Source: Candidatus Electronema aureum
GTDB lineage: Bacteria; Desulfobacterota; Desulfobulbia; Desulfobulbales; Desulfobulbaceae
Direction of reading: 5' to 3'
Assembly (NCBI GenBank): GCA_004284765.1
Contig: NQJD01000038.1
Location: forward strand, 1-23,259
DNA length: 23,259 nt
Shown here: in pieces, positions 1-23,259 of the stretch
Layout: the number at the start of each line of letters is the position of its first letter
Numbering within the stretch: position 1 is the first letter of the stretch
The notes under the pieces: generated by a model
What the model was told of the DNA's origin: nothing
The model's input: the letters and a program-made list of their open reading frames with translations, nothing else
Databases searched by the model: none
Translations under genes and position numbers: made by a program

Positions 1-117
1 TCAACAATGCTGAAAGACCGGTCGCCGTCGTTTGACCGAAGGAACTAATGAGATACTCGCTGTATAAATCAAGCAGGTTCTTTTTTGTCATGCAGGTATC
101 TTACGCCATCTGGGTGC
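1..117 (-). mobile_element. IS end proximal to the transposase start. It holds the 5' part of a DDE transposase gene (IS4-family-like N-terminus) that reads out of the left edge of the window.
   Basis: ATG at 91 on the minus strand gives MTKKNLLDLYSEYLISSFGQTTATGLSALL. From memory this resembles the conserved N-terminus of IS4-type transposases (DYLISSFGxTTATGLS). The terminal repeat CTCACCTTACGCA (reverse complement of 105-117) matches 23135-23147. Confidence 0.7.
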
Positions 118-714
118 GTAAGGTGAGTTATCCAAATAATTGTAGAACTCATTCAGTTGAGAAAGCAATCCACTTAACAGGTATCTATTAAGTGGGTTTT
201 CATTTGAAAGCCGATCTATAGTTTTTCCCTCATTTGCCAAACGAGGAATGAATTTTGATTTATTCACCACAAATATTTTCCTTTCAGGAAACTTTTTATT
301 TAATCCTTTTTTCAGATCATCCACATCTTTTTTGTCTGTGTTATTTATGAGGATCACCACATTTTCATTTAATCCTTTTAGAGTGTTCACCGTCTTAATG
401 CAGGGCATTAAATCCGCCATAGATTGGTAGAAAAGAGGCACAACCAACACATCACAAATCTTGGCAATGCTCTCTATTCTCTCATCCACCCAGCCCCCGA
501 AGTCAAACACCACATCCAGATCAACGGGCAAATTAAGGCTGTCCTCGTTCCTAATGATATGCAATTGGTCTTCTGGGAAAATATCCTTGTAAATCTCAAC
601 TGTTCCGCTCTCGTAGTCGTTGGTGAAGTACAAAGCCCCCCTATGTTTGGCATAGCTTATGGCATGAGTGGTTTTTCCCTGCCCGCCTTTGGACGAATAA
701 AACAATATTTTCAT
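88..714 (-). CDS. parA: ParA/Soj-type partition ATPase. Its 3' end is replaced by IS-derived codons.
   Basis: Deviant Walker A motif SSKGGQGKTT near the N-terminus. AGGAAG Shine-Dalgarno sequence upstream of the ATG at 714. The last ~13 residues (NSPYAPRWRKIPA) are read from the IS end. With the IS removed the frame reads NYLDKF then TAA (23120-23122). Confidence 0.9.
   Translation of the reverse strand: MKILFYSSKGGQGKTTHAISYAKHRGALYFTNDYESGTVEIYKDIFPEDQLHIIRNEDSLNLPVDLDVVFDFGGWVDERIESIAKICDVLVVPLFYQSMADLMPCIKTVNTLKGLNENVVILINNTDKKDVDDLKKGLNKKFPERKIFVVNKSKFIPRLANEGKTIDRLSNENPLNRYLLSGLLSQLNEFYNYLDNSPYAPRWRKIPA
118..125. repeat. Target-site duplication copy TTATCCAA
   Basis: The same 8-mer lies at 23127-23134, directly abutting the other IS terminus. 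Confidence 0.7.
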
Positions 715-774
715 AATTTCTTCCTGATGAATTATTTAGTTAAGTATATCTTTTTTCTATAAAAAAGCAAGTAT

Positions 775-940
775 TTCTGTGCTTAAAACACTAAATGCTT
801 TTGACACTAAAACATTTAGTGTTTTAAGTCTAAAGTGTTTTAGCTACTTTAGCATTCTGTGCTTTTAGCACTTAGTGCTAAAATGCTAAAAGCATTGAAA
901 CACAAAAGGCTTAAAGCACTAAATGCTTTAAGCCTTTTGT
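775..940. promoter_or_regulatory. Centromere/operator-like cluster of palindromes upstream of parA
   Basis: Perfect inverted repeats at 782-797/813-828 (16 bp) and 904-918/924-938 (15 bp). Palindromes at 863-883 and 882-896. All are built from the CACTAAA/TTTAGTG and GCTTWAA/TTWAAGC units. Confidence 0.6.
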
Positions 941-966
941 TCTGGAAAGTAAATGCGAATAGCCGT

Positions 967-1294
967 TTATCTTTTATTAAATTCTATATCTTCAACAAAT
1001 CTTATCTTCTGTTTTTTATCTTCAGTGTAGCACACAAATTTTAGTACAACGACTGTTGTTAGGTAGTTATTTCTCGGTTTTCTTTTTGGCAAAACTGTAG
1101 GTAATGAAAGATTTTTGTTTAACTCTATATGAATTTCATTCTTTAGTCCGTATGATTTATTTATAATTTTCTCTTATTGTTCAAGCATTCTCAATTCAGC
1201 AGTCTGTAAATAAATCAATGGACACCCAGAAATAAGAACCTACAAAATTTCTAATTTTGTAAGAAGCTGTATCAATTATGTTTACTCTAAACAT
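967..1294 (-). pseudogene. Possible frameshifted small gene of unknown family, perhaps the toxin of a degenerate TA pair
   Basis: ATG at 1294 opens a 45-codon frame with two in-frame TGA that ends at TAA (1157). A second frame with no TAA/TAG runs 1173 to 967. The two overlap at an A-rich stretch, which is consistent with a 1-nt frameshift. Confidence 0.3.
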
Positions 1295-1442
1295 ATTGCT
1301 CTTGTTCTAATTCGGTATTTTTATTCCCTTGTTTTTCCATAAGCAATTTAATAAATCCATCTGCATCTTCTACTGTTTGTTTATAAGCAATATCTAATGC
1401 CTCTTCCATTGTGTAGCATTTCTCTCAGTTGCGAATTATCAT
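1287..1442 (-). CDS. Small hypothetical protein (51 aa under code 25), antitoxin-like by position
   Basis: ATG at 1442, one in-frame TGA (1425-1427), stop TAG at 1287-1289. There is an 8-nt ATGTTTAG overlap with the downstream ORF, as is typical of TA operons. No family recognised. Confidence 0.3.
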
Positions 1443-1700
1443 AATATTTTAATTAAATACCAAATTACAGTAACTATAATAATTTTTCATATAAAAGCAA
1501 AAATATATTATACAACATTATAAAAAATATAATAGCTTGAAATAGCGAAACTTGACATTGAAAAAGAATGCTAAATTTTTCTAAAATTTATAAAACGGCT
1601 TTGTAAAGCTATAAACAACCATTTCATCACACCACATAAGAAGTATTATGTGAAGTAGTAAAAAAGTATAAAATATTGATAGAATATATTTGATAATGAT

Positions 1701-1997
1701 TTAAAAATCACCAAAAAATAATTTTTCTCTATCCTGCCTTTCATCCCATACCCTTAAAACTTCAATTACTTCACCTCTGATTAAGTAAATAAAAGAAAAT
1801 GGTGTTTTATGTATAGAAAATTCCATGATATTATTATCTTGAATAAGATGCCCTATATAAGGATTGTTTTTTATTAAACCTTTTGTGCTATGAAATTGTT
1901 TTTGAGCCTTCTCCAATCACTGAGGAAAAATACTTTCATAATAATACCTGAACCATTTTAAATCATTTAACGAGCTTACTAAAAACCTTATCTGCAT
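1701..1997 (-). CDS. parE: ParE/RelE-family toxin (98 aa when TGA is read as Gly)
   Basis: The track shows only the C-terminal 71 aa. Extending upstream through TGA at 1917-1919 reaches the ATG at 1997 and gives MQIRFLVSSLNDLKWFRYYYESIFPQ-G-LEKAQ...FSFIYLIRGEVIEVLRVWDERQD, a ParE-like pattern. It starts 3 nt after the antitoxin stop. Confidence 0.8.
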
Positions 1998-2000
1998 AAT

Positions 2001-2288
2001 CTATTTAGTGTTAGGAAATATATCTGGTTCAGGTGTAGGAAGTTCTTTTTTATTTCCCCATGAATCAACCCAAGTATTTACAATTTCTTCAGAGATAAAT
2101 ATTCCTTTTTCAGCCTCTTCAATAGCCTTTCTCTTCGCTGTTTTAGCCTGCAAAAAACTCTTAATTGCTTGATTGGCAAGATAGGATGGTGAGCGATCAT
2201 TTCTTTTGGCTTCCTGTTCAAGTAGTGCCTTGGTACTTGGATCAAGTCTAAGAGAAAACGGAACAGTAGCAATAGTATTCATATTCAT
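2001..2288 (-). CDS. Ribbon-helix-helix (CopG-family) antitoxin paired with ParE
   Basis: MNMNTIATVPFSLRLDPSTKALLEQEAKRNDRSPSYLANQAIKSFL is an RHH fold pattern. The start at 2288 is preferred over 2342 because a perfect palindrome operator lies at 2293-2330. Stop is TAG. Confidence 0.8.
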   Translation of the reverse strand: MNMNTIATVPFSLRLDPSTKALLEQEAKRNDRSPSYLANQAIKSFLQAKTAKRKAIEEAEKGIFISEEIVNTWVDSWGNKKELPTPEPDIFPNTK

Positions 2289-2292
2289 AAAG

Positions 2293-2330
2293 TTAAAAAG
2301 TATACAATGTGCACATTGTATACTTTTTAA
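2293..2330. promoter_or_regulatory. 38-bp perfect palindrome, likely autoregulatory operator of the RHH antitoxin operon
   Basis: TTAAAAAGTATACAATGTG|CACATTGTATACTTTTTAA, centred between 2311 and 2312 and immediately upstream of the antitoxin start. Confidence 0.7.
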
Positions 2331-2420
2331 AACATCTGTCAAATTATCATATAAAAATCAATAAGAAGTACTTATTAGTAAAAAATACTAATAATATAAT
2401 ATTTGTTATGTGATGTATTC

Positions 2421-3683
2421 TTAGAATAATGTCTTGATGCTATCCTGTACCTTAAAATTTATTTCATTTTCAGTTAGTACCTTGTCTCTGCTGAATAAAT
2501 AAAATTCTAAAAATGTATCGGTAAATCAATTTATTTTTATTTTCTTAAAAATAGATTTTCAAATACTTGTTGAATTCAAATGCTGTATAAAATCATATTC
2601 CAAAATCTTTTTTCTATCCTCTGAAAGACTGCTGTACTTTGTTTTGAACAGATCTTTTAAGTATAATTCAAATTTCTTTTTCCTTTCGCTTTCCTCCTGC
2701 TCTATCCTCTCCTTTTCTTTCTCTAACTCCTTTTTTGATTTAAGCAATTCCTTGTTAGGCAAGTTTCAAGCATAATTATTATTTATAGCCTTTATTAAGA
2801 AAGATGAAGGATTATTTTTATTTCTTATCTTTCAATTATCAAGCTCGTTTTTGAAATACTTGTAATTGTTTTGAATAATGTTTATTCAATAGCTCTCTAT
2901 GAGTTCGTCAATTGTCTCGTTTGGAATCCACTGCAACAGTTCAGACATAAACGGACAAGCAATTTTCCCCATCCCCTCATTATTTTTTCATTCAAAAGTT
3001 TTTATGATAAATTCAATAGAATGCACCTTATTTTTATCTTTCATTTCTTTATATTCAAAAAAGAATTTTTTATGCTTAGATTCTAGTTCAACCTTTGCTG
3101 GTTCAAGAACCCTTGCCTTGAAATTTGAAAACAATTTATATTGATCCTCTTCAAGATTTAATAATCATCTTAGGAAATCAAGTGTAAAAATAAAATTATT
3201 CTTTTTATATTTTCTGTAATTTGCAAGCAATAATTGAAAAATCCTTATTGTATATGCACTCCTAAACCTTATAGCAATTGAAAAATCATAAGACAGGAAA
3301 TTATTTTTTAGATTTAACAAATATGGCTTTAGCTTAGGGTCAATTGATAATTCAACATATCATTCATTTTTAAAATATTCAGCAGAAGAAAGCCAGTTTA
3401 TTTGCAAATCCCTTTCAGGAGAAGTGAATGTTATTCACCTTCTTATAAGATTTCCAGTTATTATTTGAACCTCTTTGTAGAATTTCTTGTTTTTAATATC
3501 TAAAATATCTAGTAAATCTTTTATCTTCAGCTTATAAACTTTGAAATCTGTATCAGTTGGCTGGATTAATGATATTAAGCATAACATTATTTTTTGCTCG
3601 TTCAATGATAACTTGTATTGTGCTATAACCAAATCGTTTGACTGTGTTACCTTGTTGTTTATGTCTAATTTATCAAAAAACAT
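2421..3683 (-). CDS. Rep_3/RepB-family replication initiator Rep1 (420 aa under code 25, nine in-frame TGA)
   Basis: The N-terminal sequence SNDLVIAQYKLSLNEQKIMLCLISLI is a Rep_3 signature. I translated the frame by hand from 3683 to TAA at 2421-2423. It has no TAA/TAG but has TGA at 3435-3437, 3360-3362, 3165-3167, 2559-2561, 2526-2528 and four more sites. The read-through text continues the family pattern (G-YVELSIDPKLKPYLLNLKNNFLSYDFSIAIRFRSAYTIRIFQLL). Confidence 0.85.
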
Positions 3684-3815
3684 AGTATGTTTTATTATGT
3701 TCTAATACAACAGAAATTGTATTTGCAATAATATTTAAGTCAAATTTTTAGGTATGAAAATGTTGCTTTTCTTTTTTATATAAAAATATAATGTAACTAA
3801 TACATCGTAATCAAT

Positions 3816-3930
3816 CTGTAATAGTTAGGTAGGATTATGTAATAGTTTCGTAAGGAAAAAGTAATAGGTCGGTAGGATTATGTAATAGCTCTGTAAGGAT
3901 TATGTAATAGTTAGGTAGGATTATGTAATA
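3816..3930. repeat. Iteron array for Rep1
   Basis: GGATTATGTAATA occurs at 3832, 3875, 3897 and 3918 (spacings 43, 22 and 21 bp), with partial GTAATAG copies at 3819 and 3861. The array is ~130 bp upstream of the Rep1 start. Confidence 0.8.
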
Positions 3931-4003
3931 ATTGACTGTAAAAAACGGCTTATTAAAGCTGAAAAATAAGGTCTCTAAACATATAAAACAAGTAAAACAT
4001 TAT

Positions 4004-4035
4004 AAAACAACAACGAAAGAAACCGTTGTTGTTTT
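4004..4035 (+). terminator. Rho-independent terminator-like hairpin
   Basis: 12-bp perfect stem AAAACAACAACG/CGTTGTTGTTTT with an 8-nt loop, ending in T residues followed by ATTTAAAATTTTT. Confidence 0.5.
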
Positions 4036-4103
4036 ATTTAAAATTTTTGATTTCTTGTATTTTTTCATATAATAGAGAATATTTAAAAATTAAAATAATA
4101 AAA

Positions 4104-4358
4104 ATGACTAAAATTCATAACATATCAGTTACACTGCCATCACAATTTGAAAATCTTTTATTAAATTGAGTAAAATTAAAAGATGGTAAAGATAAAGAAA
4201 CTTTTTTAAAGGAAGAACTTGAAAGGATGTTGATTGATAAAATAGTAGAAGAGCTTGAAGATTATAATTCTGCTATAGAGGCTCACCATGATTTTATTTC
4301 TTCTTGATGAGAGACTATTTCCTTTAAAGAAATAGAGGAAAAATATAATCTTAAATAA
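4104..4358 (+). CDS. relB: RelB-type (RHH-like) antitoxin, 84 aa under code 25
   Basis: ATG at 4104, in-frame TGA at 4167-4169 and a TGA-TGA pair at 4305-4310, stop TAA at 4356-4358. The C-terminus DFISS-GG-ETISFKEIEEKYNLK resembles RelB-type tails. It lies 2 nt upstream of relE. Confidence 0.7.
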
Positions 4359-4360
4359 AA

Positions 4361-4615
4361 ATGAAGGTAGAATTTACTAAAAATGCTGAAAAAGATATTA
4401 GCAAGTTTGATAAAAATATTCAGCTATTAATTAGGAAAAATATAAAAGAAAAACTGTTGATAAATCCAGAATATTATTTAGTTCCTTTAGTTTGAAATTT
4501 AACAGGTCAGTATAAATTTCGTGTTTGAACCTATAGAATTATTTGTGAAAAGCATTATGACAGGCTTGTTATTCTGGTTGTTAGAATAAAACACAGAAAA
4601 GATGTTTATAAATAG
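4361..4615 (+). CDS. relE: RelE-family mRNA interferase toxin, 84 aa under code 25
   Basis: MKVEFTKNAEKDISKFDKNIQ...PLV-TGA-NLTGQYKFRV-TGA-TYRIICEKHYDRLVILVVRIKHRKDVYK. The two TGA (4493-4495, 4526-4528) sit where RelE families have the conserved Gly (L-x-G and R-x-G-x-YR). Confidence 0.85.
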
Positions 4616-4625
4616 TTTTTTAAAA

Positions 4626-5708
4626 TCAAACCCCAAAAGTTGCCACAGGTATTTTTTCTAAACAAATTTGACATTTTTTTCTATTCCCAGCAATCCCCCT
4701 TTCTCTAACCTTGCAAATCTCTTTTTTCAATTTTTTATTATGCCAACAAGATAATGATTCGTGATATTCTGGCAAACCTTCCTGTATTACATCCAAATTT
4801 ATTTGCTCAATTTCCTTGTTTATTCCCCCAAGCATATATTTAGGCAATAGCCCTTTTTTTTCGTTCCACCTCGCCCTAATTTCGGGCACTTTTTTTATAA
4901 AATGGTTCTCTTTGTTTAATTCACATATCTTTTTTATGTAACTATCTGCAATATTATTTTTTATACCACAAACTAAAAGCATTTTTGATAGAATATTTTC
5001 TGGATTATCTATCTCAATGATATCATCAGTTGGTTTTCTAAATAGGAAAAATTTTAAAGCAACTACAGAATTCCTGTCAATTTCTTTTTCATAACCAACA
5101 TTTAAATCACTTTTTTCGTTAATTTCCTCAATAGCTGGGTCAAGTATTCTCTCTCTAAAAGAATTGAAACGGCTATATTTTTTATCAGCACCAAGATAAG
5201 CTTTTAAAACTTTTATTTCAACATACCAAGAGCAATTTTTTTTCCACCTATTTAAATTTTCATATAATTTCCAAGTATAAGCCGACTTGAATTGATAAAC
5301 ATCAGCTAATCTATAAATAGAAAAACAATCTTTTAATTCAAGTAAATATGGCTGAATGTCTGGGTTAATTCTAAACTCAAATTCCCCCTTTCCTCTCTTA
5401 TAAATAAAACCACTGAACCAGTTCCAAAAATGCCGTTCATTACCCTTATCAAAAACAAGAGGCTTATTATTTAGCTCTAACATAGCATTATAAATGACGG
5501 TATAGGCAACTATCCTCATCCATAGGAAATATTTTACTAAATCCGTAATCTTAGCCGTGAATGTTCTATTTTCAGGCTTCCTACTGTCGTAGTGAGCCAA
5601 GCAATAGGCAATAAGGCGAAGTTCAGGCAGGTCAAACTTCGCTAACTTAGTCACAAGATCGTTTGATTTCGCAACTATTGAATTATGATCAGGTTTTTTA
5701 TTTTTCAT
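4626..5708 (-). CDS. Rep_3/RepB-family replication initiator Rep2 (360 aa) with no in-frame TGA
   Basis: MKNKKPDHNSIVAKSNDLVTKLAKFDLPELRLIAYCLAHY is a Rep_3 N-terminus. The ATG at 5708 is preferred to the track start at 5789. The gene ends TGA (4626-4628), TTT, TAA (4620-4622). The C-terminal tail carries C-x10-C-x13-C-x2-C. Confidence 0.85.
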   Translation of the reverse strand: MKNKKPDHNSIVAKSNDLVTKLAKFDLPELRLIAYCLAHYDSRKPENRTFTAKITDLVKYFLWMRIVAYTVIYNAMLELNNKPLVFDKGNERHFWNWFSGFIYKRGKGEFEFRINPDIQPYLLELKDCFSIYRLADVYQFKSAYTWKLYENLNRWKKNCSWYVEIKVLKAYLGADKKYSRFNSFRERILDPAIEEINEKSDLNVGYEKEIDRNSVVALKFFLFRKPTDDIIEIDNPENILSKMLLVCGIKNNIADSYIKKICELNKENHFIKKVPEIRARWNEKKGLLPKYMLGGINKEIEQINLDVIQEGLPEYHESLSCWHNKKLKKEICKVRERGIAGNRKKCQICLEKIPVATFGV

Positions 5709-6910: not shown

Positions 6911-6912
6911 GG

Positions 6913-15500: not shown

Positions 15501-18500
15501 ACCCCGAAGGCAGTGTGAAGCATGTTGAATATGATGCCCTCGGTCGCCCGCTTGCCGTGACGAAAAACTATGTTGCGGGGGCAGGCGACAGCTCGGACAC
15601 CAATATTACAACCCAGTTCTCCTACGATCTTTTAGGCAACAGGCTTTCCGTTACCGACCCTGAAGGCTACCAGTTTTCCGCTGAATATGACCTGCAAAGC
15701 CGTCTCGTAAAACGGCGGGATGCGGAAAATTACGAATGGGAATACAGCTATGACCCAATGGGAAACCTCCTTGCCGAGCTGAACCCCAGAGGCTACAGCA
15801 CCGCCTACACCTATACCCCAGCAAACCGCCTTCAGTCCGTTACCAACCCAGAACAGCACACCAAAACCCTTGTTTGGAATGCCAACGGCAAGCTGGTTTC
15901 AATCAAAGACCCGCTCGGAACAGTCACAGCCTACGGCTATGACTCCCTTGACCGCAAGACTGCCAAAATCATGAACTACAAGCCGTCTTTCGCCCCAGAC
16001 AGCCAGACCAATGTAACCACCAAGTTTGCTTACGATCTAGCAGGGAATCTTCGGTATATCACCAATCCCCTGAACTACAAGGCGGAAATTCGGTACGATG
16101 CCGCTCAACGAAAAACGGAGCAAATCAATTTTGAGGGCGGCAGAACCAAGTTTGCTTACGACAAGGTCGGCAATCTTCTCAAGGTCACGGATGCCAAGGG
16201 TAATTCCACCAGCTATACAGTAGATGAGCTTGACCGCCTTACAGCCGTCACCAATGCCGAGAACGAGACCACAGGCTATGCCTATGACCTCGTAGGCAAC
16301 CGCACCCAGCTTGTGGAGCCAGACGGCACCGTAACCCTGTATGAATTTGACGGGGTGTACCGCCTGAATAAGGTGCATGAGAACTACCGCCCAGACCAAG
16401 GAACGGGCAACGATGTGAATGCCGTCACCGCCTACGGCTATGACAGGCGAGGACTGCTCACCAGCACAGTGAACCCCAACGGGGCGGAGACCAAGTTTGA
16501 GCACAACGGGGTTGAAAAGCTGGTGAAGGAGGTTGATCCGCTCGGCAAGGTCTGGGAATATGCCTATGACGGCAACAGAAACCGCACCAGCCGAAAGGAT
16601 GCCAAAGGCGATCTGACCGAGTACGAGTTCTACCCAGACGACATGCTGGAGCAGATCAGCTATGCCGACGGCAGCAGTGTGTCCTACGAATACGACCCGA
16701 ACAACAACCGCACAGGGATGACCGACAAGCTCGGCACGACCTCGTGGAGCTTTGACCCGCTGAACCGAACCACCCAGCAGAAAGACCCCTTTGAACGGAT
16801 TTTGCAGTACCGCTACGATGCCGATTCCAACAGGATCGGCATGACCTACCCAGACGGCAACAAGGTTGCCTACCAGTACAGCCCGAACAGCTGGCTGAAA
16901 AAAATGACCGACCCTAAAGGGCAGGTCATCACCTACAGCCGTGATCTGGTCGGCAACACCACCAAAATAACCAACCCCAACAAGACCGAAACCACGGTCG
17001 CTTATGACAAGGTGTACCGCACCTTGCAGAGGGTCAACCGCCAGACCACCAACGGCGGCAAGATCAACTCCGCCTACTGGCACAGTTACAACAAGCTGGG
17101 CAACATCACCAAAACTATGAACCAGTACGGCTGGCGGAAGCCGTCCGTCGTGCAGGAAACCTACAGCTACGACGGTTTGCATCGCCTTGCAGGGTTCAGC
17201 CTCTATCCTCTCCAGAACAACGGCGGCAGAGTTACGGAAACTTGGAACTATGACCCCGCAGGCAACCGTCTGAGCTGGAAAACCAACGACGACCTTCAGA
17301 GCAACACCCCCTTTGATGCCTTCAGCAGAACCTACGAATACAACGAAGCCAGCCAGATGCTTGCCGTGGCACACGATGCAGGCAAGAAAAGCAAGAACTT
17401 CGCCTACGAGTACAGCTACGACGAGAACGGCAATAGAATCAACCGACAGCTTGAGGATGCCAACGGCCCGCAATACGGGGCAGATTACAGCTATGACCCC
17501 GAAAACCGCCTTGTGGAAGTGCAGGACTACCAGCTCACAGGCAAAAACGGAAAGAACCGAATAGACCGAGCCGTAACCTCGCTGGAGTATGACGGTGGCG
17601 GTCGTCGGTTGGTTCAACACTATGACCCCAAGAACGGCGGAAATGGAGTTGATAAACGGGACGAGTATGTGTTTGACGGGCTTGACCCAGTTGCCGAGTA
17701 CGACAAGCTGAACGGGCAGCGGACGGACTACTACAGGGGCGAGGGTGGGGACATTGCCTTAATGCACCAGTATAAGGGTGGCACTCAAGGGCAGATGTAC
17801 TGGTATCACTACAACCAAAAGAAAGATGTTGTAGGATTAACGAAACAAAACGGCAATTCACACCACAACTACCGTTATGATGTGTACGGAGCTGTTTTGC
17901 CTGAAAACGGCAATTTCACTGATCCGCACAACCACTACACTTTGACGGGCAAAGAGTTTGATGAGAACACGGGCTTAGTGTGGTTTGGGGCAAGGCATTA
18001 TGAGCCTGAGACTGGGGTGTGGATGGGGCAGGATAATTTTAGAGGAATTTTAGATATACCTATGACATTGCATAGGTATCAATATAATTATAACAATACA
18101 GTTAATTATTATGATCCTGACGGGAAAAATCCATTGATTGTTATTGGTGCTATTATTGCTGGTGTATTTCTAAATGATATAAATATTGCTAAATCTCTTG
18201 ATAAAGGACAAAAGATTGATGGTGAATCTGTTAATTTGATAGAGGAAGTATTAGATGAAATACCAATTTATAAAGATATTCCAGATGGAGCTAAATTTGC
18301 TGCTGAAATTCTTTATACAAAAGGTAGTAATTTAAAAAATCCTAAAAAAACAAAGTCTATATATAAATCTTCAAAAAAGATATGGAAAAAATATGAGCAA
18401 TATTGTATTGACAAGGGAAATGAAATTAAGAAGGAGATTAAGTCTATATGGAACAGTACAAAGAAAAAAACATCTGTAGAGAGTGCATTTAATCATTGGA

Positions 18501-18772
18501 AAAAACATGGTGATGAATTTCCAGAATTTAATAACGCAAAAGAATATGTTGAGGGGGCAAAAAAATTTATTTCTGATCCTCCAAAAGGAACTATTTCAGT
18601 AGATATGAAAAATGGAGGTAAAATGTTTTACAATCAAGAAACTAATACTTTTGCTATTTCAAATAGTGAAGGTGTTCCTGAAACGATGTTTAAACCTGAT
18701 GTTTCTGATCATGGTTTAAACGATAATATGGCATATTGGCTTCAGGAAGTAGCTAAGTGGGGAGTTAAGTGA
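12554..18772 (+). CDS. Rhs/YD-repeat polymorphic toxin with an N-terminal signal peptide (WapA-like architecture)
   Basis: GGAGA ribosome-binding site. Hydrophobic leader ending VALAC. Tandem Ig-like N-terminal domains. Rhs plug-like GHPVTTYTGNF...FITRAYNS. Dozens of YxYDxxGN repeats. Core end GKEFDENTGLVWFGARHYEPETGVWMGQD...YYDPDGKNPL. Stop is TGA at 18770-18772. Confidence 0.95.
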   Translation: MSKQPASFRSLWSFLPVSILFLLTIYEGVALACTPKIVWVADNNIPNVIEAGTAVTFKWEVVNKSSCNATDLRVAFYSTSLESPTADFGGDNNPSFSLKPWEKGIIEAKMPIAPKEIEKYFELKFDIVKADGTPLVPLALGRLGAEFTIIPLTEPPPTQSCTANLVWEEPKYDAKKVAPSVPVLFVWTVTNISTDCDAINYSPVFFYAEPSSQTANYNGTSHPHFDAKRGKTVQIQANVLLTPAEEGKYKAVFNIYDHNGDALPVSGEKEPLYAEFEVSKSIPPPKEPCDSVLAPVVQSVDLVQLGNDGKVLVTANVTNSSGELTVTLDLNGKTYTMSKLNSGAYGATGEGNKAGKNDYTVTAGNGCKFHGLDFVDGVLSSYNMGTCCQDADMSCKNQRKCGRSQFAASKGHPVTTYTGNFAETLTDGAVAGIGDADLFITRAYNSAAALADAASVYRHTEAGREKVAGPPQYFGTGWSSNLDSFLLAMDYAPLYEGVQIRFPDGHTQNFEKSGSSYKSSTPDNFDELTKEGNNFVLKRKSSLETWSFGSDGKLLQTSDQNGNKVAYTYGGGCLEKISSGSRAVTFTCDAKGHITKAQLPENIVISYEYNDDLLTAMTDGRGNKTQYTYDENKQLTKISTPLGTPSVQMSYDDRYRVSSQTVGESELYAFAYQGEDAAESTTITDSYGNATVQKHDEKGRQVEITHPDGTTEEFKHDDHNSRTYYKDPAGGEYSYTYDDKGNMLALDGPLGLHKEWSYSQSNLVTATTEKVDDTKNRKFTFEYDAKGNLSKFCLPLQNCGTVTYTAAGLPEKLTDLRGNISVNAYNAEGDLVSVTDPEGAVTKFSHDGLGRTVGKTKPLGNAYRYAYDQNSNLTAVDGPLGFHMGYSYDANNNLAESTDPNGGKKRYTYTASGSMSSEQNQLGFVTSFAYGLMNERTGMTDAEGRQWSYAYDSMLRVKEVSGPLGHRQGFVYNALGMITDATDPEGSVKHVEYDALGRPLAVTKNYVAGAGDSSDTNITTQFSYDLLGNRLSVTDPEGYQFSAEYDLQSRLVKRRDAENYEWEYSYDPMGNLLAELNPRGYSTAYTYTPANRLQSVTNPEQHTKTLVWNANGKLVSIKDPLGTVTAYGYDSLDRKTAKIMNYKPSFAPDSQTNVTTKFAYDLAGNLRYITNPLNYKAEIRYDAAQRKTEQINFEGGRTKFAYDKVGNLLKVTDAKGNSTSYTVDELDRLTAVTNAENETTGYAYDLVGNRTQLVEPDGTVTLYEFDGVYRLNKVHENYRPDQGTGNDVNAVTAYGYDRRGLLTSTVNPNGAETKFEHNGVEKLVKEVDPLGKVWEYAYDGNRNRTSRKDAKGDLTEYEFYPDDMLEQISYADGSSVSYEYDPNNNRTGMTDKLGTTSWSFDPLNRTTQQKDPFERILQYRYDADSNRIGMTYPDGNKVAYQYSPNSWLKKMTDPKGQVITYSRDLVGNTTKITNPNKTETTVAYDKVYRTLQRVNRQTTNGGKINSAYWHSYNKLGNITKTMNQYGWRKPSVVQETYSYDGLHRLAGFSLYPLQNNGGRVTETWNYDPAGNRLSWKTNDDLQSNTPFDAFSRTYEYNEASQMLAVAHDAGKKSKNFAYEYSYDENGNRINRQLEDANGPQYGADYSYDPENRLVEVQDYQLTGKNGKNRIDRAVTSLEYDGGGRRLVQHYDPKNGGNGVDKRDEYVFDGLDPVAEYDKLNGQRTDYYRGEGGDIALMHQYKGGTQGQMYWYHYNQKKDVVGLTKQNGNSHHNYRYDVYGAVLPENGNFTDPHNHYTLTGKEFDENTGLVWFGARHYEPETGVWMGQDNFRGILDIPMTLHRYQYNYNNTVNYYDPDGKNPLIVIGAIIAGVFLNDINIAKSLDKGQKIDGESVNLIEEVLDEIPIYKDIPDGAKFAAEILYTKGSNLKNPKKTKSIYKSSKKIWKKYEQYCIDKGNEIKKEIKSIWNSTKKKTSVESAFNHWKKHGDEFPEFNNAKEYVEGAKKFISDPPKGTISVDMKNGGKMFYNQETNTFAISNSEGVPETMFKPDVSDHGLNDNMAYWLQEVAKWGVK
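18125..18769 (+). other. Variable C-terminal toxin tip of the Rhs protein (about 215 aa after the DPDG motif)
   Basis: The sequence turns abruptly AT-rich from about 18040. There is a hydrophobic stretch LIVIGAIIAGVFL and a Lys-rich linker. The final domain reads AFNHWKKHGDEFPEF...AKKFI...GGKMFYNQETNTFAISNSEGVPETMFKP, which from memory is reminiscent of colicin D/BECR-type RNase tips. This is unverified. Confidence 0.6.
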
Positions 18773-18829
18773 TTTGACTTTCAATATAATTTGATAGAAT
18801 GGAAATATTTATTTTGTAATAAATATAAT

Positions 18830-19141
18830 ATGAATAACAACAGATTGACTACAGCATGGTACTGTAGGGTTTGTGGCTTGAATCAAAATTATATTCATTG
18901 GGATGTTGATAAACAACTTCCACCTACTTATGATTTTTGTGATTGTTGTAATGCTCAGTTTGGTTATAATGATTCAAATAATATAGCTATATCTATTTAT
19001 AGAAAAAGATGGATTGATTCTGGAGCTGAATGGAGCAATAGAACCAGAAGAATGGAAGAATGGAATCTTAAGGAACAATTAAAGAATATTCCTGATGAAT
19101 ATAGAGATAATTTTGTATTATCTTTGATTTCTGAGAAATAA
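18830..19141 (+). CDS. Putative cognate immunity protein, Cys-rich (zinc-ribbon-like)
   Basis: It lies immediately downstream of the toxin tip and has the same AT-rich composition. C-x2-C (CRVC) and C-x-C-C (CDCC) pairs sit 23 residues apart. The ATG at 18830 is preferred to the TTG at 18791. Stop is TAA. Confidence 0.55.
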   Translation: MNNNRLTTAWYCRVCGLNQNYIHWDVDKQLPPTYDFCDCCNAQFGYNDSNNIAISIYRKRWIDSGAEWSNRTRRMEEWNLKEQLKNIPDEYRDNFVLSLISEK

Positions 19142-19187
19142 TTATTTAACCTTCGTGATAATTACGATTATTCGCCGCCTGCGAATG

Positions 19188-19610
19188 TCAAAAAGGTTTC
19201 CACGGATTGATTATCACCTGATGACTCGGTGCAAAATCATCCTCATTTCGTGTTACAACCACCATTTGATGAGCTGATGCCGTAGCAGCAATATATCCGT
19301 CAATAACAGACATCCGTTGTCCTGCTTCCTCTGCCATAGCTTGCAGGATTCCCCATGCTTCAGCTATAGCACGATCAACAGGGATAATCCGATCACTGTA
19401 ATCGGCTAAAAGCATTTCAAACCAGCCCGATAGCCGAGTTTTCTTCTTTGAGTCAGGCATTCTTGCAATGCCTCGTTTCACCTCGCCAATCGTGAGAGCA
19501 CTTAAAAAAAGATGCTCGGAAGGAACCGATGCGAGCCAGTTCATTACTGCCTTATTTGGAACTGGTCTCACCAATTCAGAAATTATGCAGGTATCGAGCA
19601 GATAATTCAT
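19188..19610 (-). CDS. vapC: VapC PIN-domain toxin
   Basis: MNYLLDTCIISELVRP...TRNEDDF shows the PIN acidic residues in the usual order. ATGA overlap with the upstream antitoxin. Stop is TGA. Confidence 0.9.
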   Translation of the reverse strand: MNYLLDTCIISELVRPVPNKAVMNWLASVPSEHLFLSALTIGEVKRGIARMPDSKKKTRLSGWFEMLLADYSDRIIPVDRAIAEAWGILQAMAEEAGQRMSVIDGYIAATASAHQMVVVTRNEDDFAPSHQVIINPWKPF

Positions 19611-19861
19611 AGATCAAGCTCCCGTGGATATTCCTGTTGCCGTTGAAACGGATCGTCAGCATCAAGTTTGGGACAGCTTAACAGAAATTCTGTAAATGAT
19701 TGTTTATGCGATGTTAATTTTTCATAATCACGGACTGAAAGCAAAACTGCCGTAGCAACACCCCGCCGTAGAACATATTGCGGTCCTTGTGTCAGAGCTT
19801 CATTGACGAACTGACTGAATTTATTCTTTGCATCCTGAAGTTTCCAGTTTGTTTTGATCAT
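19607..19861 (-). CDS. Phd/YefM-family antitoxin paired with VapC
   Basis: MIKTNWKLQDAKNKFSQFVNEALTQGPQYVLRRGVATAVLLSVRDYEKL. The start at 19861 is preferred to the long track ORF. Stop is TGA. Confidence 0.85.
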   Translation of the reverse strand: MIKTNWKLQDAKNKFSQFVNEALTQGPQYVLRRGVATAVLLSVRDYEKLTSHKQSFTEFLLSCPKLDADDPFQRQQEYPRELDL

Positions 19862-19996
19862 GCTTTTTCTCCAGTTAAGGGGGAATTCATCTAGGTAGGC
19901 TAGCTGAAAAAGGTATCGCCTGTCAAGTTCCAAATGGGGAACACGATACAAAGCCACCCCTTGCCTTTTGTGTTGCACCTGTGCTACACTGCTGTT

Positions 19997-20248
19997 ATGA
20001 AGACCGCAACCATACACACACGAATAGAGCCTGAAATTAAAAATCAGGCGGAACAAATCCTAAGTCGGCTTGGACTCACCCACACCGAGGCAATAGGGAT
20101 ATTTTACCGTCAAATATGCCTTGGCAACGGGCTTCCTTTCCCTGTGGAGATACCCAACAAATGCACCGCCGAGACACTGGCAAAAAGCAGTCGTGGCGAG
20201 GAAGTGAAGACTTTTGCCAGCCTTGAAGAGATGTTTGAGACTTGGTAG
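19997..20248 (+). CDS. dinJ: DinJ/RelB-family antitoxin
   Basis: MKTATIHTRIEPEIKNQAEQILSRLGLTHTEAIGIFYRQI is a typical DinJ N-terminus. Stop TAG lies 2 nt before the toxin ATG. Confidence 0.85.
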   Translation: MKTATIHTRIEPEIKNQAEQILSRLGLTHTEAIGIFYRQICLGNGLPFPVEIPNKCTAETLAKSSRGEEVKTFASLEEMFETW

Positions 20249-20250
20249 GC

Positions 20251-20520
20251 ATGAAAAAAGTATCTCAAACCCGCCAGTTTCTAAGGGATGTTAAAAAGGC
20301 TGCAAAACGGGGGAAGGACTTAAACAAACTCAAGCGGATTGTTTCACTCCTTGCAAAAGGCGAACCGCTTGAAGCCAGTTGCAGAGATCACAGTCTAACG
20401 GGGCAATGGAAGCCGTCCCGTGACTGCCATATTGAACCCGATTGGATTCTTATTTATACAGCAGATGAAGAAAATTTGCTTTTAGAGAGAACAGGCACCC
20501 ACAGTGATCTTTTCAGGTGA
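20251..20520 (+). CDS. yafQ: YafQ-family mRNA interferase toxin
   Basis: RDHSLTGQWKPSRDCHIEPDWILIYTADEENLLLERTGTHSDLF matches the YafQ signature. Stop is TGA. Confidence 0.85.
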   Translation: MKKVSQTRQFLRDVKKAAKRGKDLNKLKRIVSLLAKGEPLEASCRDHSLTGQWKPSRDCHIEPDWILIYTADEENLLLERTGTHSDLFR

Positions 20521-20781
20521 GATTTGAAAAAATTATTATTCTGATTTTCTCAAGCAGTCATTCTTTCTTCTCTTCTTTTCAAAGTAGCAAAGCAAGTCGT
20601 CCTGCCGTCACTGGTTCAGATCGTCTCCCCCACCTCCTCCAAGCCGTCCTTTTCAGCCCTCCAACCACTCCGTCAAAGCCTCTTTTGTTTCTATGCCCCG
20701 TAAAAGGCTCATACAAGCCTGTCACAGCCTTTTTTTGTGGTGAGCAGTACCTTTCCATGCCCAGTGGTGAAAATCACTTAG

Positions 20782-20804
20782 AAGCCCCATAGCGGGCTTT
20801 TTTT
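20782..20804 (+). terminator. Rho-independent terminator
   Basis: Stem AAGCCC/GGGCTT with a 6-nt loop, followed by a T7 run. Confidence 0.6.
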
Positions 20805-20810
20805 GAGGGA

Positions 20811-20836
20811 CAAGGAAAACAGGACTGTTTTCCTTG
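20811..20836 (-). other. Near-perfect hairpin downstream of Rep3
   Basis: CAAGGAAAACAG-GA-CTGTTTTCCTTG has 12-nt complementary arms. No clear U-run on the minus strand. Confidence 0.4.
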
Positions 20837-20896
20837 CCTACCGCCCCGCCTGTTCCCGTCCGCCGAACGGCTGACAAAGCACCCCCTGCAAGGTGA

Positions 20897-21841
20897 TCAA
20901 CCTTGCTCTGCCTGTTGTTTCTTCTGCTCCTGTTCCCGCTCGTCCAAAAACTTGATGTATGCCCCTTGAACCATTAAAGCACGACCGTACTCAAGATAAA
21001 ATTTATAAATAAATTCATCATGTACTTTTGCATGTTCTAAAAATTCATTAAATATTTTCCTATCTAATTCCGCTGTTTCAACCTCCTCATAAGATGATTG
21101 ATTTGTTGTTTCTGGTTTAGTCTTAACAATTGATTTATCTGTATTGTTGTCTAACTCAATAATTATAAATTTTATAACCGCAATTTTCCTACCTTCCCTT
21201 TCTGTTTCAAGTTCAAAAGAAATATCAGATTTATATTTCCCTTTCTCGTTTTTCTCATCAAACTCTTTCTTTGCCTGATTTAAAATCCATTTCTTGAAAT
21301 CTTTATATTCTTTATACTGATTTTCCTTTAAACCAAGAATTTCCCTTAATTCATCAACTCTAAATTTTCTCCAACCAATATTTTTATACTGGCAAAGAAG
21401 CTGATAAATTCGTACAGAATAGATACTTTGAAATTGTGTAAGTCGGTTAAGATTTATAATTGTAAAATGAGACTTTAATTGTAATAAATATGGTTTCATA
21501 AAAGGGTCAAACCTAAAATAGACTATCTTGTTTTTATAGTCGTGATCACAAAAAGAAACCCAATGTGTAATTTTAAGTCTTTTTTCTTCTTTTATATAAA
21601 TAATCCTTTGCATTAAACGAACTGTAATTTTTTTCATTTGATGATGGATATTTTCAATATCCATGTTCATAAGATATGACAATTCTTTAAAAGATATTTC
21701 GTATGTATGAAAATCTTTATCGTCTTTTTGTATCTTTGATACCATAGCTAAAATAAGCCGTTGCTCACTTGTTGTTAAAGTGTATTTTGATTCAATTAAC
21801 TTGTTTGATTGAACAACAAACTTAGGAGCATTTGCCGTCAT
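20897..21841 (-). CDS. Rep_3/RepB-family replication initiator Rep3 (314 aa, standard code)
   Basis: VVQSNKLIESKYTLTTSEQRLILAMVSKI and FRFDPFMKPYLLQLKSHFTIINLNRLTQFQSIYSVRIYQLL are Rep_3 patterns. Stop is TGA at 20897-20899, and no TAA/TAG follows in at least the next ~40 in-frame codons I translated. Confidence 0.9.
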   Translation of the reverse strand: MTANAPKFVVQSNKLIESKYTLTTSEQRLILAMVSKIQKDDKDFHTYEISFKELSYLMNMDIENIHHQMKKITVRLMQRIIYIKEEKRLKITHWVSFCDHDYKNKIVYFRFDPFMKPYLLQLKSHFTIINLNRLTQFQSIYSVRIYQLLCQYKNIGWRKFRVDELREILGLKENQYKEYKDFKKWILNQAKKEFDEKNEKGKYKSDISFELETEREGRKIAVIKFIIIELDNNTDKSIVKTKPETTNQSSYEEVETAELDRKIFNEFLEHAKVHDEFIYKFYLEYGRALMVQGAYIKFLDEREQEQKKQQAEQG

Positions 21842-21933
21842 TGTAACACCTTTAGCTTTTTTTGTATGAAAAATACTGAAACGGCTTTTATCTTACATCG
21901 GTGGAGAATGCTTGGCAAGTCTCCTCTCTATTT

Positions 21934-22061
21934 TCATGTTTTTTTCTCCACCTTTTTAAAAAGTGGAGATAGTTTAGCTATTCTCCACCTATGCTGTTTC
22001 ATGTTTTTTTCTCCACCGTATCCATGTTTTTTTCTCCACCTTTCATGTTTTTTTCTCCACC
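21934..22061. repeat. Iteron array for Rep3
   Basis: (T/C)CATGTTTTTTTCTCCACC at 21934, 21999, 22022 and 22043. Half-sites TTCTCCACC at 21981 and inverted GGTGGAGAA near 21900 and 21963. Confidence 0.85.
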
Positions 22062-22117
22062 TTTAGCTTTTTTCCCTCTGTTATTTCAGATAGTTACAGT
22101 ATCGTAAATCTTTTAAA

Positions 22118-22160
22118 AAAGAAAAACACACACACAAAGTGTGTGTGTGTGTTTTTCTTT
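22118..22160. terminator. Long A-tract/(CA)n - (GT)n/T-tract hairpin, bidirectional terminator-like
   Basis: AAAGAAAA(AC)5 pairs with (GT)5TTTTCTTT. There are A-runs 5' and T-runs 3' of the stem. Confidence 0.6.
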
Positions 22161-22563
22161 CACTTTAAAAGGGGAAAAATGGTTGCTTCGCAACTTGAAC
22201 AGGAGCCGTGCTTGAGGCACGGCAGGGGGGCTATCGCCCCCCGAAAAGTGTTGCGACTGCTCGTCGCAAACGGAAACAGAACTTTCTTTGAAAGAGGGAT
22301 GAAAATCTTGCCGTCCGTCTCCTCCTCAAGCCTCCCGCCCTGTACATGCTCTAAAAGGAGGCATACAAACCCGCTACAGCCTCTTTCAAAACAAAGAGGT
22401 ACTCTGGAATGCCTCAGCTTCAAAAAACAAAACATGACCCAGTGGAGAGCTTTTTTGGAGGTATGTACAAAAACAGCCCTGATCCCGTCTCCTGCGGTTC
22501 GTATCAGCCAAACTCCCGCCAGAGGAAGCGGACAGCCTCACTCTCTGGTAAAAATGAGAAGAA

Positions 22564-22606
22564 GCCCTTTGTTTCCTCGCTTTTGAAAGCGAAAGAAAAC
22601 AAGGCT
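22564..22606 (-). terminator. Extended imperfect hairpin downstream of the minus-strand small gene
   Basis: Inner stem TCGCTTT/AAAGCGA, outer pairing CCTTTGTTT/AAAACAAGG. On the minus strand it is followed by TTCTTCTCATTTTT. Confidence 0.45.
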
Positions 22607-22626
22607 TGCTCATTTTTACACGGAAA

Positions 22627-22809
22627 TTACCTCGGATCAAATCACTTTTCAGCCAAAGACTCTTTTATTTTCACTCAAGCAGTCTGTATTAGATATGCCT
22701 CGTCATCACTTTTTGCATTATTCCTGTAATTGTGGAAAGAAACCCTTTTTAGGAACTCAGAAAAAGCCTCTGCCTCCTTATCAGTTAAGGAAATTGAAAA
22801 TTTAACCAT
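22627..22809 (-). CDS. Small conserved-looking plasmid protein (60 aa under code 25)
   Basis: ATG at 22809, TGA at 22675-22677 and 22642-22644, stop TAA at 22627-22629. The translation reads MVKFSISLTDKEAEAFSEFLKRVSFHNYRNNAKSDDEAYLIQTA-G-VKIKESLAEK-G-FDPR. The ending GFxPR resembles a small plasmid/ICE protein family I recall only loosely. Confidence 0.6.
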
Positions 22810-22833
22810 GAAAAAACATATTAAAAAATAAAT

Positions 22834-23013
22834 CTATTTTCTCCTTTTTCTTATATCATCAAGAATAAGTCCCCTGATTCTATCCGCCACTTTTTCCAGA
22901 GGTTTGAAAGTCTCTATAAAAGCCTCATACTCGCTCTCAGTCAAGTATACAGCAAGCCTTTTATCTTTCTTCTGTGTTTTCTCCTTAGCTGTTGATTTAG
23001 CAGGTATATTCAC
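22834..23013 (-). CDS. Ribbon-helix-helix protein, ParG-like centromere-binding candidate
   Basis: KRLAVYLTESEYEAFIETFKPLEKVADRIRGLILDDIRKRRK fits an RHH strand-helix-helix pattern, with a Lys-rich N-terminal tail. A GTG start at 23013 is assumed. The frame is open further upstream but has no ATG. Confidence 0.55.
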   Translation of the reverse strand: MNIPAKSTAKEKTQKKDKRLAVYLTESEYEAFIETFKPLEKVADRIRGLILDDIRKRRK

Positions 23014-23036
23014 CGTCTTTTTCGCCCCCTTTTGGT

Positions 23037-23117
23037 CTATATAAAGTCAATGGTCGTTTTATCACCCATTTTCTCCGCTGTTTTCTCAAACAAACTGTCA
23101 AATTTATCATGTGCCAT
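23037..23117 (-). CDS. 26-codon ORF directly after the native parA stop, possibly the frameshifted 5' part of the parG-like gene
   Basis: ATG at 23117 lies 2 nt after the reconstructed parA TAA. It encodes MAHDKFDSLFEKTAEKMGDKTTIDFI then TAG. The RHH frame is offset by one nucleotide. Confidence 0.35.
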   Translation of the reverse strand: MAHDKFDSLFEKTAEKMGDKTTIDFI

Positions 23118-23126
23118 AATTAAAAC

Positions 23127-23134
23127 TTATCCAA
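23127..23134. repeat. Target-site duplication copy TTATCCAA
   Basis: Identical to 118-125 and abuts the IS terminus at 23135. Confidence 0.7.
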
Positions 23135-23259
23135 CTCACCTTACGCAACAAGCCTTACAGGATTCAGTTGAAGCAAGGCAACGTAAGCCGATTGAAGGGC
23201 TTTCAGGTAGAGCTTGGATTTGAGTGCAAAGTGATTGATCTGAGTTGAGCGTTTGAGCA
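23135..23259 (-). mobile_element. IS end distal to the transposase start. It holds the 3' end of the transposase gene, which enters from the right edge of the window.
   Basis: Terminal repeat CTCACCTTACGCA at 23135-23147. The minus-strand frame reads ...LKRSTQINHFALKSKLYLKALQSAYVALLQLNPVRLVA and stops at a TAA (23141-23143) inside the terminal repeat. Confidence 0.7.

Follow-up and report, generated by a model that had tools for sequence, protein, structure and literature searches.

A mobilisable multi-replicon plasmid binned with Candidatus Electronema aureum that carries genes of two genetic codes

How can one replicon carry genes that are intact only when TGA is read as a sense codon beside genes that end in TGA, and in what kind of cell could such a molecule be maintained? 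The question is raised by contig NQJD01000038.1 of Candidatus Electronema aureum (NCBI GenBank assembly GCA_004284765.1), the whole 23,259 nt of which (positions 1-23,259) are referred to here as the window. The window holds a plasmid that is mobilisable, with a relaxase, MobC and a coupling protein (T4CP) and no other type IV secretion system gene among the open reading frames (ORFs) of the window. A sequence-only reading of this DNA had proposed one replicon with genes of two codes, implying exchange across the boundary of code 25 (TGA = glycine). Per-gene TGA counts support that proposal. Together with nine diverged relatives from other samples (L003, L004, L006, L007, L008, L009, L080, L081 and L082) they point to a plasmid lineage on which selection may long have acted in two kinds of host, one of the standard code and one an AT-rich code-25 bacterium.

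Two coding regimes interleaved on one replicon

Eight genes of the window are intact only if TGA is sense (coordinates are window positions, followed by the strand). These are orf51, a small conserved ORF also intact in L003 and L080 (1287-1442, minus; one in-frame TGA), a ParE-family toxin (1701-1997, minus; one TGA, Pfam ParE_toxin), the Rep_3 initiator Rep1 (2421-3683, minus; nine TGA, TAA stop), a RelB-like antitoxin (4104-4358, plus; three TGA), a RelE/ParE-family toxin (4361-4615, plus; two TGA), a Toprim/DnaG-like backbone primase recognised by Pfam (6913-7803, minus; four TGA), the conserved orfY without assigned function (8130-8486, plus; two TGA) and an ORF with a Pfam DUF7706 match (22627-22809, minus; E = 3.7e-20, two TGA). 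Rep1, the primase, RelBE, ParE and small ORFs had already been listed as TGA-as-glycine genes, and orf51 and the DUF7706 ORF are now added to them. Stretches that look gene-poor under the standard code turn into long ORFs once TGA is sense, and Pfam domains extend across the in-frame TGAs. Seven of the genes together hold 22 TGA and 29 GGN codons, a tally that leaves out the DUF7706 ORF and its two further TGA, while in-frame TGA is absent from 15 other genes, which hold 292 GGN (Fisher p = 5.8e-21). TGA is the stop codon of 10 of these 15 standard genes and of none of the eight TGA-sense genes (p = 0.0027), which end in TAA (five) or TAG (three).

The in-frame TGAs align with glycine, and never with a conserved tryptophan, in TGA-free orthologues and in standard-code homologues. 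Codon 108 of Rep1, a TGA, corresponds to glycine in all seven of seven standard-code homologues; the closest database relatives of Rep1, translated under code 4, have tryptophan at this position. Three of the four primase TGAs are glycine in all orthologues and the fourth is glycine or asparagine, and the ParE TGA aligns with glycine in the orthologue of L078, a TGA-free relative. In an NTase-HEPN gene found in relatives both glycines of the GSxxRG motif are spelled TGA, and a tetratricopeptide repeat (TPR) protein was recognised in relatives after TGA was read as glycine. Because the TGAs align with conserved glycines, a reading as tryptophan (code 4) was ruled out, and the alignments indicate that the coding regime of these genes is code 25.

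The standard set comprises a ParA-like partition ATPase (130-714, minus; no in-frame TGA, 11 GGN), the Rep_3 initiator Rep2 (4626-5708, minus; 14 GGN, no in-frame TGA), an H-NS-like backbone protein (6602-6910, minus; Pfam Histone_HNS), MobC (8729-9103, plus; Pfam MobC/NikA), the relaxase (9100-10023, plus; Pfam Relaxase), T4CP (10341-11807, plus; Pfam T4SS-DNA_transf) and a membrane J-domain protein (11808-12464, plus), the last four without in-frame TGA. To these are added an Rhs polymorphic toxin (12554-18772, plus; TGA stop), VapC (19188-19610, minus) with its partner Phd (19607-19861, minus), DinJ/RelB (19997-20248, plus) with YafQ (20251-20520, plus), and Rep3, a third Rep_3 initiator (20897-21841, minus; no in-frame TGA, TGA stop). 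Both toxin-antitoxin pairs match Pfam families and are in the standard code. VapC and Phd overlap by ATGA, as do MobC and the relaxase.

There are two codon regimes and ordinary GC heterogeneity, interleaved gene by gene. The sequence-only reading had instead proposed three regimes, its second (long AT-rich genes without TGA) and third (a GC-richer block with TGA stops) being in fact both standard code and different in GC only. The genes of the second class do lack in-frame TGA, and for T4CP the expected 31 or so glycine codons without TGA were counted as 31 GGN and no TGA, but Rep2, H-NS, MobC and the relaxase end in TGA. A higher GC content holds for the Rhs core (53%) and the two toxin-antitoxin pairs of the third class and not for Rep3 (29%), the C-terminal Rhs tip (30%) or orfP, a putative immunity gene named from its position downstream of Rhs (18830-19141, plus; 30% GC). 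Along the contig GC ranges from 22% to 58%.

Read under code 25, with the TGA counted, YafQ would gain 61 codons, Rep3 149 and MobC 2, which agrees with the earlier estimates of about 60 for YafQ and at least 40 for Rep3. In Rep2, H-NS and MobC the TGA stop is backed one codon later by TAA or TAG (TGA, TTT, TAA in Rep2; TGA, one codon and TAG in H-NS). The transfer genes had been described as code-neutral, which is correct for T4CP and the J-domain gene only, since MobC gains its two codons and the relaxase would become joined to the ORF that follows it. The relaxase TGA (10021) is in frame with a conserved ORF of 64-77 residues found in the window, L006, L007, L008 and L079. In the window this is the small ORF of the mobilisation block (10069-10263, plus; no in-frame TGA). 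The spacer between relaxase and small ORF is 15 codons and of constant length in five relatives, and code 25 would fuse both. Read-through into the small ORF was nevertheless rejected and the relaxase TGA taken as a stop, because the small ORF has its own AAGGAGG and GTG/ATG start and lies in another frame in Motiliproteus. The Rhs TGA stop is likewise in frame with orfP, with no TAA or TAG between them (18770-19141), and a code-25 ribosome would yield a toxin-immunity fusion of 2195 residues. A comparison of Shine-Dalgarno sequences between the TGA-sense and the standard set gave no clean difference.

Closure of the contig by an insertion sequence

The two contig ends are the two ends of one insertion sequence (IS) of the IS701 family, with inverted repeats AACTCACCTTACGCA and a 4-bp target-site duplication, ATCC, at 130-133 and 23129-23132. 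The left end occupies 1-129 on the minus strand, with the transposase ATG at 91, an ORF that leaves the contig and a terminal inverted repeat that ends at 129. The right end (23133-23259) has the partner repeat at 23133-23152, adjoining the duplication. Longer relatives of the 30-residue transposase N-terminus match NCBIfam IS701 models; this N-terminus yields the family and no link to an organism. The element sits exactly at the junction of ParA and the DUF7706 gene, which L081 keeps as one overlapping pair. Homology to the L006 ParA ends at window position 128, and in the called ORF (88-714) the last 13 codons and the TGA stop are derived from the IS, with an ATGA overlap onto the transposase start. 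Because the ends belong to one IS whose target duplication splits the ParA-DUF7706 operon, the molecule is circular and the window nearly complete.

Contigs in two independent Logan assemblies of other runs (SRR14559659 and SRR14559660) are 100% identical to the window over 2301-21807 and 7470-21807. Judged by their record lengths, both should end about 30 nt into the IS, the behaviour expected of a k = 31 assembler that meets a multicopy repeat. A perfect palindrome of 38 nt (2293-2330) lies upstream of the operon of ParE and its ribbon-helix-helix (RHH) antitoxin and is probably its operator; going by the record coordinates, one of the two contigs should end 30 nt into it. A near-identity search of the whole window against PLSDB gave no match, and neither an exact 30-mer of the IS end nor the window was found in the GTDB representatives, which thus supply no link to a host.

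On the far side of the IS the DUF7706-gene homologue is fragmented (22627-23117, minus) into ORFs at 23037-23117, 22834-23013 and 22627-22809, as determined by tblastn and three-frame translation. The 59-residue ORF at 22834-23013, from the N-terminal part of the gene, starts at GTG with AAGGGGG upstream of it, lacks TGA and has a real stop close by. It could be a shortened, standard-code-compatible partition adaptor, and it has no Pfam match.

Diverged relatives keep both kinds of gene

Seven of the nine relatives combine TGA-sense and TGA-free genes. RelE, RelB and Rep1 are present in L003 and L004, at 82-88% nucleotide identity, and L003 reaches the 3' end of Rep2. L080 contains Rep2, RelE, RelB, Rep1, a lipoprotein-like gene, orf51 and a gene of 113 residues, while L081 has Rep1, a ParE pair, ParA and DUF7706, and L082 has the primase, H-NS, NTase-HEPN and Rep1. 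L006 and L007, whose T4CP is 74-76% identical to that of the window, share the backbone of Rep2, H-NS, primase, MobC, relaxase and T4CP and have a Rep1 orthologue of 422 codons with 10 and 7 TGAs, respectively. In L008 and L009 (T4CP 84%) the linkage of T4CP, J-domain gene and Rhs is kept, and in L008 an orfY orthologue with three TGA adjoins MobC. The mobilisation block is syntenic in L006, L007, L008 and L009 as well as in L077 and L010. The position of H-NS is conserved in L006, L007, L078 and L082.

Two genes recur in the family's backbone: the H-NS-like gene, beside the primase, and the membrane J-domain gene, placed directly after T4CP in the window, L008, L009 and L077.

The share of glycine codons spelled TGA is bimodal across the family. 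It is 69-100% in Rep1, RelB, RelE, the 113-residue gene and NTase-HEPN, all glycine codons being TGA in the RelB and RelE orthologues of L003 and L080, and 0% in Rep2, T4CP and the lipoprotein-like gene, which has 34 glycine codons and lies inside the TGA-rich module. The primase is intermediate (4 of 21 glycine codons in the window, 3 of 20 in L082 and none in L006, L007 and L078), and in L006 it ends in TGA. Rep2 orthologues share "FGV" as their last residues, followed by TGA in the window and L080 and by TAA in L006 and L007. TGA likewise stands at the orthologous stop position of TAA in the primase, H-NS and MobC.

The lipoprotein-like gene encodes 136-151 residues with 8-10 GGN and no TGA and is flanked by TGA-rich genes in the relatives (2376-2786 in L003, 3635-4045 in L080, 1421-1846 in L081 and 4181-4555 in L082). 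At this place the window has the ParE/RHH pair, the RHH antitoxin (2001-2285, minus; no TGA) having RelB3_C orthologues in L006 and L081. The 113-residue gene is a TGA-containing pseudogene in the window (954-1294, minus), with a frameshift and a small deletion seen in three-frame translation against the intact copies of L003, L080 and L082.

Rep1 and Rep2 are found in one neighbourhood in L003, L006, L007 and L080. Identity to the window is 90% (L003), 64% (L080), 52% (L007) and 45% (L006) for Rep1, and 80% (L080), 57% (L007) and 59% (L006) for Rep2. The two rankings are compatible, L080 being nearest of those compared for both genes, and the pairing is therefore old.

Selection on both gene sets

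Between the window and L003 or L004, Rep1 has diverged to a synonymous distance (dS) of about 0.5 with a ratio of non-synonymous to synonymous change (dN/dS) of 0.09, and all nine TGAs are conserved. For codons 84-420, which lie past the first TGA and are translatable only with TGA as sense, dN/dS is 0.11-0.12. The primase compared with that of L082, which also has TGAs, gives 0.17, and orfY compared with L008 gives 0.24. On the standard side, T4CP is saturated at synonymous sites against every relative (proportion of synonymous differences about 0.75), yet six relatives have no TGA in 171 glycine codons, and the T4CP stop in relatives is always TAA or TAG. The N-terminal region of Rhs gives dN/dS of 0.22-0.27 between plasmids. 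These ratios indicate purifying selection on both gene sets.

Three Rep_3 initiators with their own repeats

All three initiators match both Rep_3 domains in Pfam, with E values for Rep3_N (WH1) and Rep3_C (WH2) of 5e-35 and 9e-13 in Rep1, 5e-28 and 8e-16 in Rep2, and 8e-36 and 7e-15 in Rep3. Each has tandem direct repeats (iterons) upstream of the rep gene, namely three 43-nt units for Rep1 (3807-3933), three of 22 nt for Rep2 (5918-5983) with a further copy at 5761-5782, and four of about 22-24 nt for Rep3 (21932-22064).

Between the Rep2 iterons and the H-NS gene lies a stretch (5990-6600) of about 44% GC without a convincing ORF, inside which a 43-nt repeat occurs at 6353-6395 and 6551-6593. 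Just past the Rep3 iterons there is a perfect (CA)n/(TG)n hairpin (22118-22160) with 19-21 nt per arm, for which Rfam gives spurious sub-threshold microRNA matches alone.

Evidence on the host

The contig is part of the metagenome-assembled genome (MAG) of the freshwater cable bacterium Ca. Electronema aureum GS, and its T4CP and Rhs have exact matches among the NCBI proteins of this MAG. Relatives of T4CP are found in Ca. Electrothrix GM3_4 (79%), a genome that was sequenced from washed single filaments, and in isolates of Pseudoalteromonas, Motiliproteus and Neptuniibacter (62-67%). Named Rhs homologues with 59-78% identity come from cable bacteria only, including Electrothrix contigs of 4.1 Mb and 5.1 Mb, and the next match is at 34%. 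The relatives of Rep2 and Rep3 in PLSDB are distant and all in standard-code bacteria. Searches with a Rep1 profile in IMG/VR gave matches at 36% only, and a relaxase profile gave nothing in IMG/VR and two loci in JGI metagenomes.

The Rhs family seems restricted to cable bacteria, where it occurs on Electrothrix chromosomes, and to these plasmids.

Which hosts would account for the plasmid

The reading that we favour, and hold with about even confidence, has selection acting on this plasmid lineage for a long time in two kinds of cell, a standard-code host and an AT-rich bacterium of code 25. It is preferred because neither single-host model fits all of the data. Life under code 25 alone does not fit because the TGA-free genes persist through saturated divergence beside genes with 69-100% TGA and because TGA sits at orthologous stop positions, and life under the standard code alone does not fit because TGA-containing frames of 420 codons hold a dN/dS of about 0.1. 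Of the two readings that had been offered for this DNA, the one in which the element works in hosts with different codes fits better than the one in which a code-25 plasmid captured standard-code modules, because the TGA-rich and TGA-free sets have co-diverged in synteny, each under purifying selection. The sequence data show the anatomy of the plasmid, the meaning of TGA as glycine, the integrity of the contig, the persistence of the mixture in relatives and purifying selection on both gene sets. An alternation between two host types, a code that switches genes on or off and the kind of bacterium that is the code-25 partner are inferred.

In a standard-code cell, such as a cable bacterium or one of the related Desulfobulbaceae, Rep1 would be truncated at codon 83, the primase at codon 19 and the remaining TGA-sense genes at their first TGA. 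Replication would then proceed through Rep2 or Rep3, and VapBC, DinJ-YafQ and Rhs with its immunity gene would be made correctly. A code-25 cell would make Rep1, the primase, RelBE and ParE. T4CP and the J-domain protein would be unchanged there, as their genes end in TAA, and Rep2, H-NS and MobC would be longer by two codons each. Rep3, YafQ, Rhs and the relaxase would be read through into long tails or fusions. In the present copy the IS insertion, together with damage to two TGA-containing genes (the 113-residue gene and the DUF7706 gene), is a weak hint that this molecule may now reside in the standard-code host.

Several observations weigh against selection in both kinds of host. ParA is free of TGA while its likely partner gene is TGA-rich in L081, which is not a clean host-specific gating, and the backbone TGA stops in relatives are not always backed by a close TAA or TAG, the next one being 22 or 47 codons away. 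The Rep1 profile searched against GTDB species representatives matched standard-code taxa only, at no more than 46% identity, with no Gracilibacteria or Absconditabacteria among them, and no code-25 organism could be tied to the element. The published list of high- and medium-quality MAGs from the enrichment has no BD1-5 or Gracilibacteria entry, a negative that is weak because code-25 genomes score poorly under code-11 gene calling. According to the closed-genome paper, four contigs of the old MAG (53.6 kb unaligned) miss the chromosome and were called contamination. The window may be one of these four, so that its residence in Electronema is unproven, although a plasmid would likewise fail to align to the chromosome.

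A host that reads only code 25 (a Gracilibacteria- or Absconditabacteria-like bacterium, perhaps feeding on cable bacteria), in which the mobilisation backbone, Rhs, the toxin-antitoxin pairs and Rep3 are captured standard-code modules that are tolerated or partly functional, is the alternative that survives best, and we consider it unlikely. It would explain why eight intact TGA-sense genes are under purifying selection, why TGAs have been acquired by the backbone primase of the window and of L082, why three backbone TGA stops are backed almost at once by TAA or TAG, as in code-11-compatible phages, and why ParA forms one operon with a TGA-rich DUF7706 gene in L081. It would not explain why T4CP, Rep2 and the lipoprotein-like gene are wholly free of TGA despite saturated synonymous sites and neighbours at 69-100%, nor why TGA replaces TAA at the orthologous stops of Rep2, the primase, H-NS and MobC and ends 10 of the 15 TGA-free genes. 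Reading under code 25 would also join Rhs to its putative immunity gene and lengthen Rep3 by 149 codons, yet Rhs is intact and under purifying selection on related plasmids. No code-25 genome with relatives was found among the GTDB representatives.

Somewhat more doubtful is a plasmid of standard-code cable bacteria alone, in which the TGA-sense genes are untranslated passengers from code-25 plasmids that have not yet decayed. The binning of the contig with Ca. Electronema and the specificity of Rhs to cable bacteria are in its favour, as are the standard-looking transposase start of the inserted IS and the state of the genes, two TGA-containing genes being damaged (the frameshifted 113-residue gene and the fragmented DUF7706 gene) and all standard genes intact. 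Untranslated DNA would not, however, keep frames of 420 codons without TAA or TAG at 27% GC. Past its first TGA, at dS of about 0.5, Rep1 has kept its frame and all nine TGAs under the low dN/dS given above, its orthologues at 45-64% identity are still intact in the same Rep2 neighbourhood, and the primase and orfY are constrained too.

Conditional recoding within one standard-code host, which would draw a suppressor tRNA-Gly(UCA) from the host itself, from a phage or from a further replicon, is improbable. Recoded phages of standard-code hosts do this, and the window is cut at the IS, leaving a small part of the molecule unseen. That part is the interior of an IS701-family element, however, and ARAGORN found no tRNA gene in the window or in L003, L006, L007 and L008, while an Rfam scan of the window gave only weak sub-threshold matches to unrelated families. 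Ten resident genes also need termination at TGA.

An assembly chimera, in which AT-rich code-25 DNA was joined to GC-richer standard-code DNA from a different molecule, might be suspected from the GC range and from the origin of the contig in a short-read metagenome bin but is highly improbable and excluded as far as sequence alone can exclude it, which largely removes a worry that the sequence-only reading had raised: two later assemblies agree exactly with the original contig, relatives from other samples show the junctions without being identical to the window, the two kinds of gene alternate one by one and do not form two blocks, the AT-rich tip and the GC-rich core of Rhs share one ORF of 2072 codons, and the contig ends are joined by one IS whose target duplication splits a known operon.

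Comparison with known mobile elements

Code-11-compatible ("code-agnostic") phages are predicted to interact with both code-25 Candidate Phyla Radiation (CPR) bacteria and standard-code bacteria, and they do without in-frame TGA and place alternative stops in tandem (Liu et al. 2023, mBio, PMC10746230). The plasmid resembles them as a mobile element that apparently crosses the boundary between TGA as glycine and TGA as stop, and in the stacked stops of Rep2, H-NS and MobC. It differs in that those phages have no in-frame TGA, whereas the plasmid keeps 22 in seven genes and 2 in the DUF7706 ORF beside ten genes with TGA stops. It may therefore be called "bilingual", with parts that are readable in one code only and with code-specific replication initiators.

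Stop-codon-recoded phages as a rule encode suppressor tRNAs or release factors of their own and recode inside a single host. Phages of this kind with mixed coding, recoding within standard-code hosts, have reportedly been described (Ivanova in 2014, Borges in 2022). Here too, genes compatible with the standard code and genes with a reassigned stop stand in one mobile genome, and the reassignment may gate expression. The present element differs in being a mobilisable plasmid without a tRNA and in using a known cellular code (25).

Plasmids classically widen their host range by carrying more than one replicon. With several Rep_3 initiators that have their own iterons, the plasmid is like multi-replicon Rep_3 iteron plasmids, cointegrates and laboratory shuttle vectors. 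We know of no multi-replicon plasmid whose replicons differ in the code needed to translate the initiator, and literature searches found no plasmid with replicons split by genetic code. Nothing direct was found in the literature on code-25 plasmids or on CPR bacteria on cable bacteria, and nothing at all on the sample accessions.

The block of MobC, relaxase and T4CP is present in the same gene order in plasmids and elements of Desulfobulbales and Gammaproteobacteria (the 14.7-kb plasmid of Desulfotalea psychrophila and elements of Motiliproteus and Pseudoalteromonas). T4CP is 38% identical to proteins of Desulfotalea and Sulfitobacter plasmids. The Motiliproteus locus, the one such relative examined, has no Rep_3 among its called genes. 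A mobilisable multi-replicon Rep_3 plasmid is a known kind of element, while its conserved dual-code organisation is new.

Other features of the window

ParA has no Pfam match and was named from a Walker-type N-terminal motif and from synteny. Upstream of it (775-940) and in the gap between the small ORF and T4CP (10265-10320) there are clusters of a palindromic motif, AAGCACTAAAGGCTTTAAG and variants. Motifs of the AAGCACTAAAGGCTTTAAG type have three matches against 0.03 expected and could be a centromere-like site, an operator, an origin of transfer (oriT) or a terminator. The Rhs ORF matches RHS_repeat (E = 1e-121) and DUF6531 in Pfam. Its tip and orfP are without Pfam match, and their roles as toxin and immunity protein are putative, being assigned from position.

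Implications for cable bacteria and their plasmids

Selection of the plasmid in both a standard-code and a code-25 host leads to a more specific proposal, which we advance tentatively. These elements could be a natural family of dual-code shuttle plasmids, in which the TGA-rich Rep_3 initiator fires only in a code-25 bacterium and one or two TGA-free initiators act in a standard-code host, so that TGA content would be a gene-by-gene switch for genes of replication, addiction and cargo. There is also a practical warning: gene calling under one code breaks such elements up, and pipelines for binning may throw them out as contaminants.

If the proposal is true, cable bacteria, or related Desulfobulbaceae of sediments, would be in physical contact with an unrecognised AT-rich partner that is Gracilibacteria- or Absconditabacteria-like and would regularly exchange DNA with it. 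The plasmid offers a concrete lead to a partner of cable bacteria that can be tested. It is a common view that a reassigned code shields its bearer from horizontal gene transfer like a firewall, and the biocontainment of recoded organisms rests on this view too. As a plasmid lineage keeps genes of both codes together under selection, this firewall would be leaky for plasmids, beyond the TGA-avoiding phages already described, and a mobile element could even use the difference in code as a host-specific expression switch.

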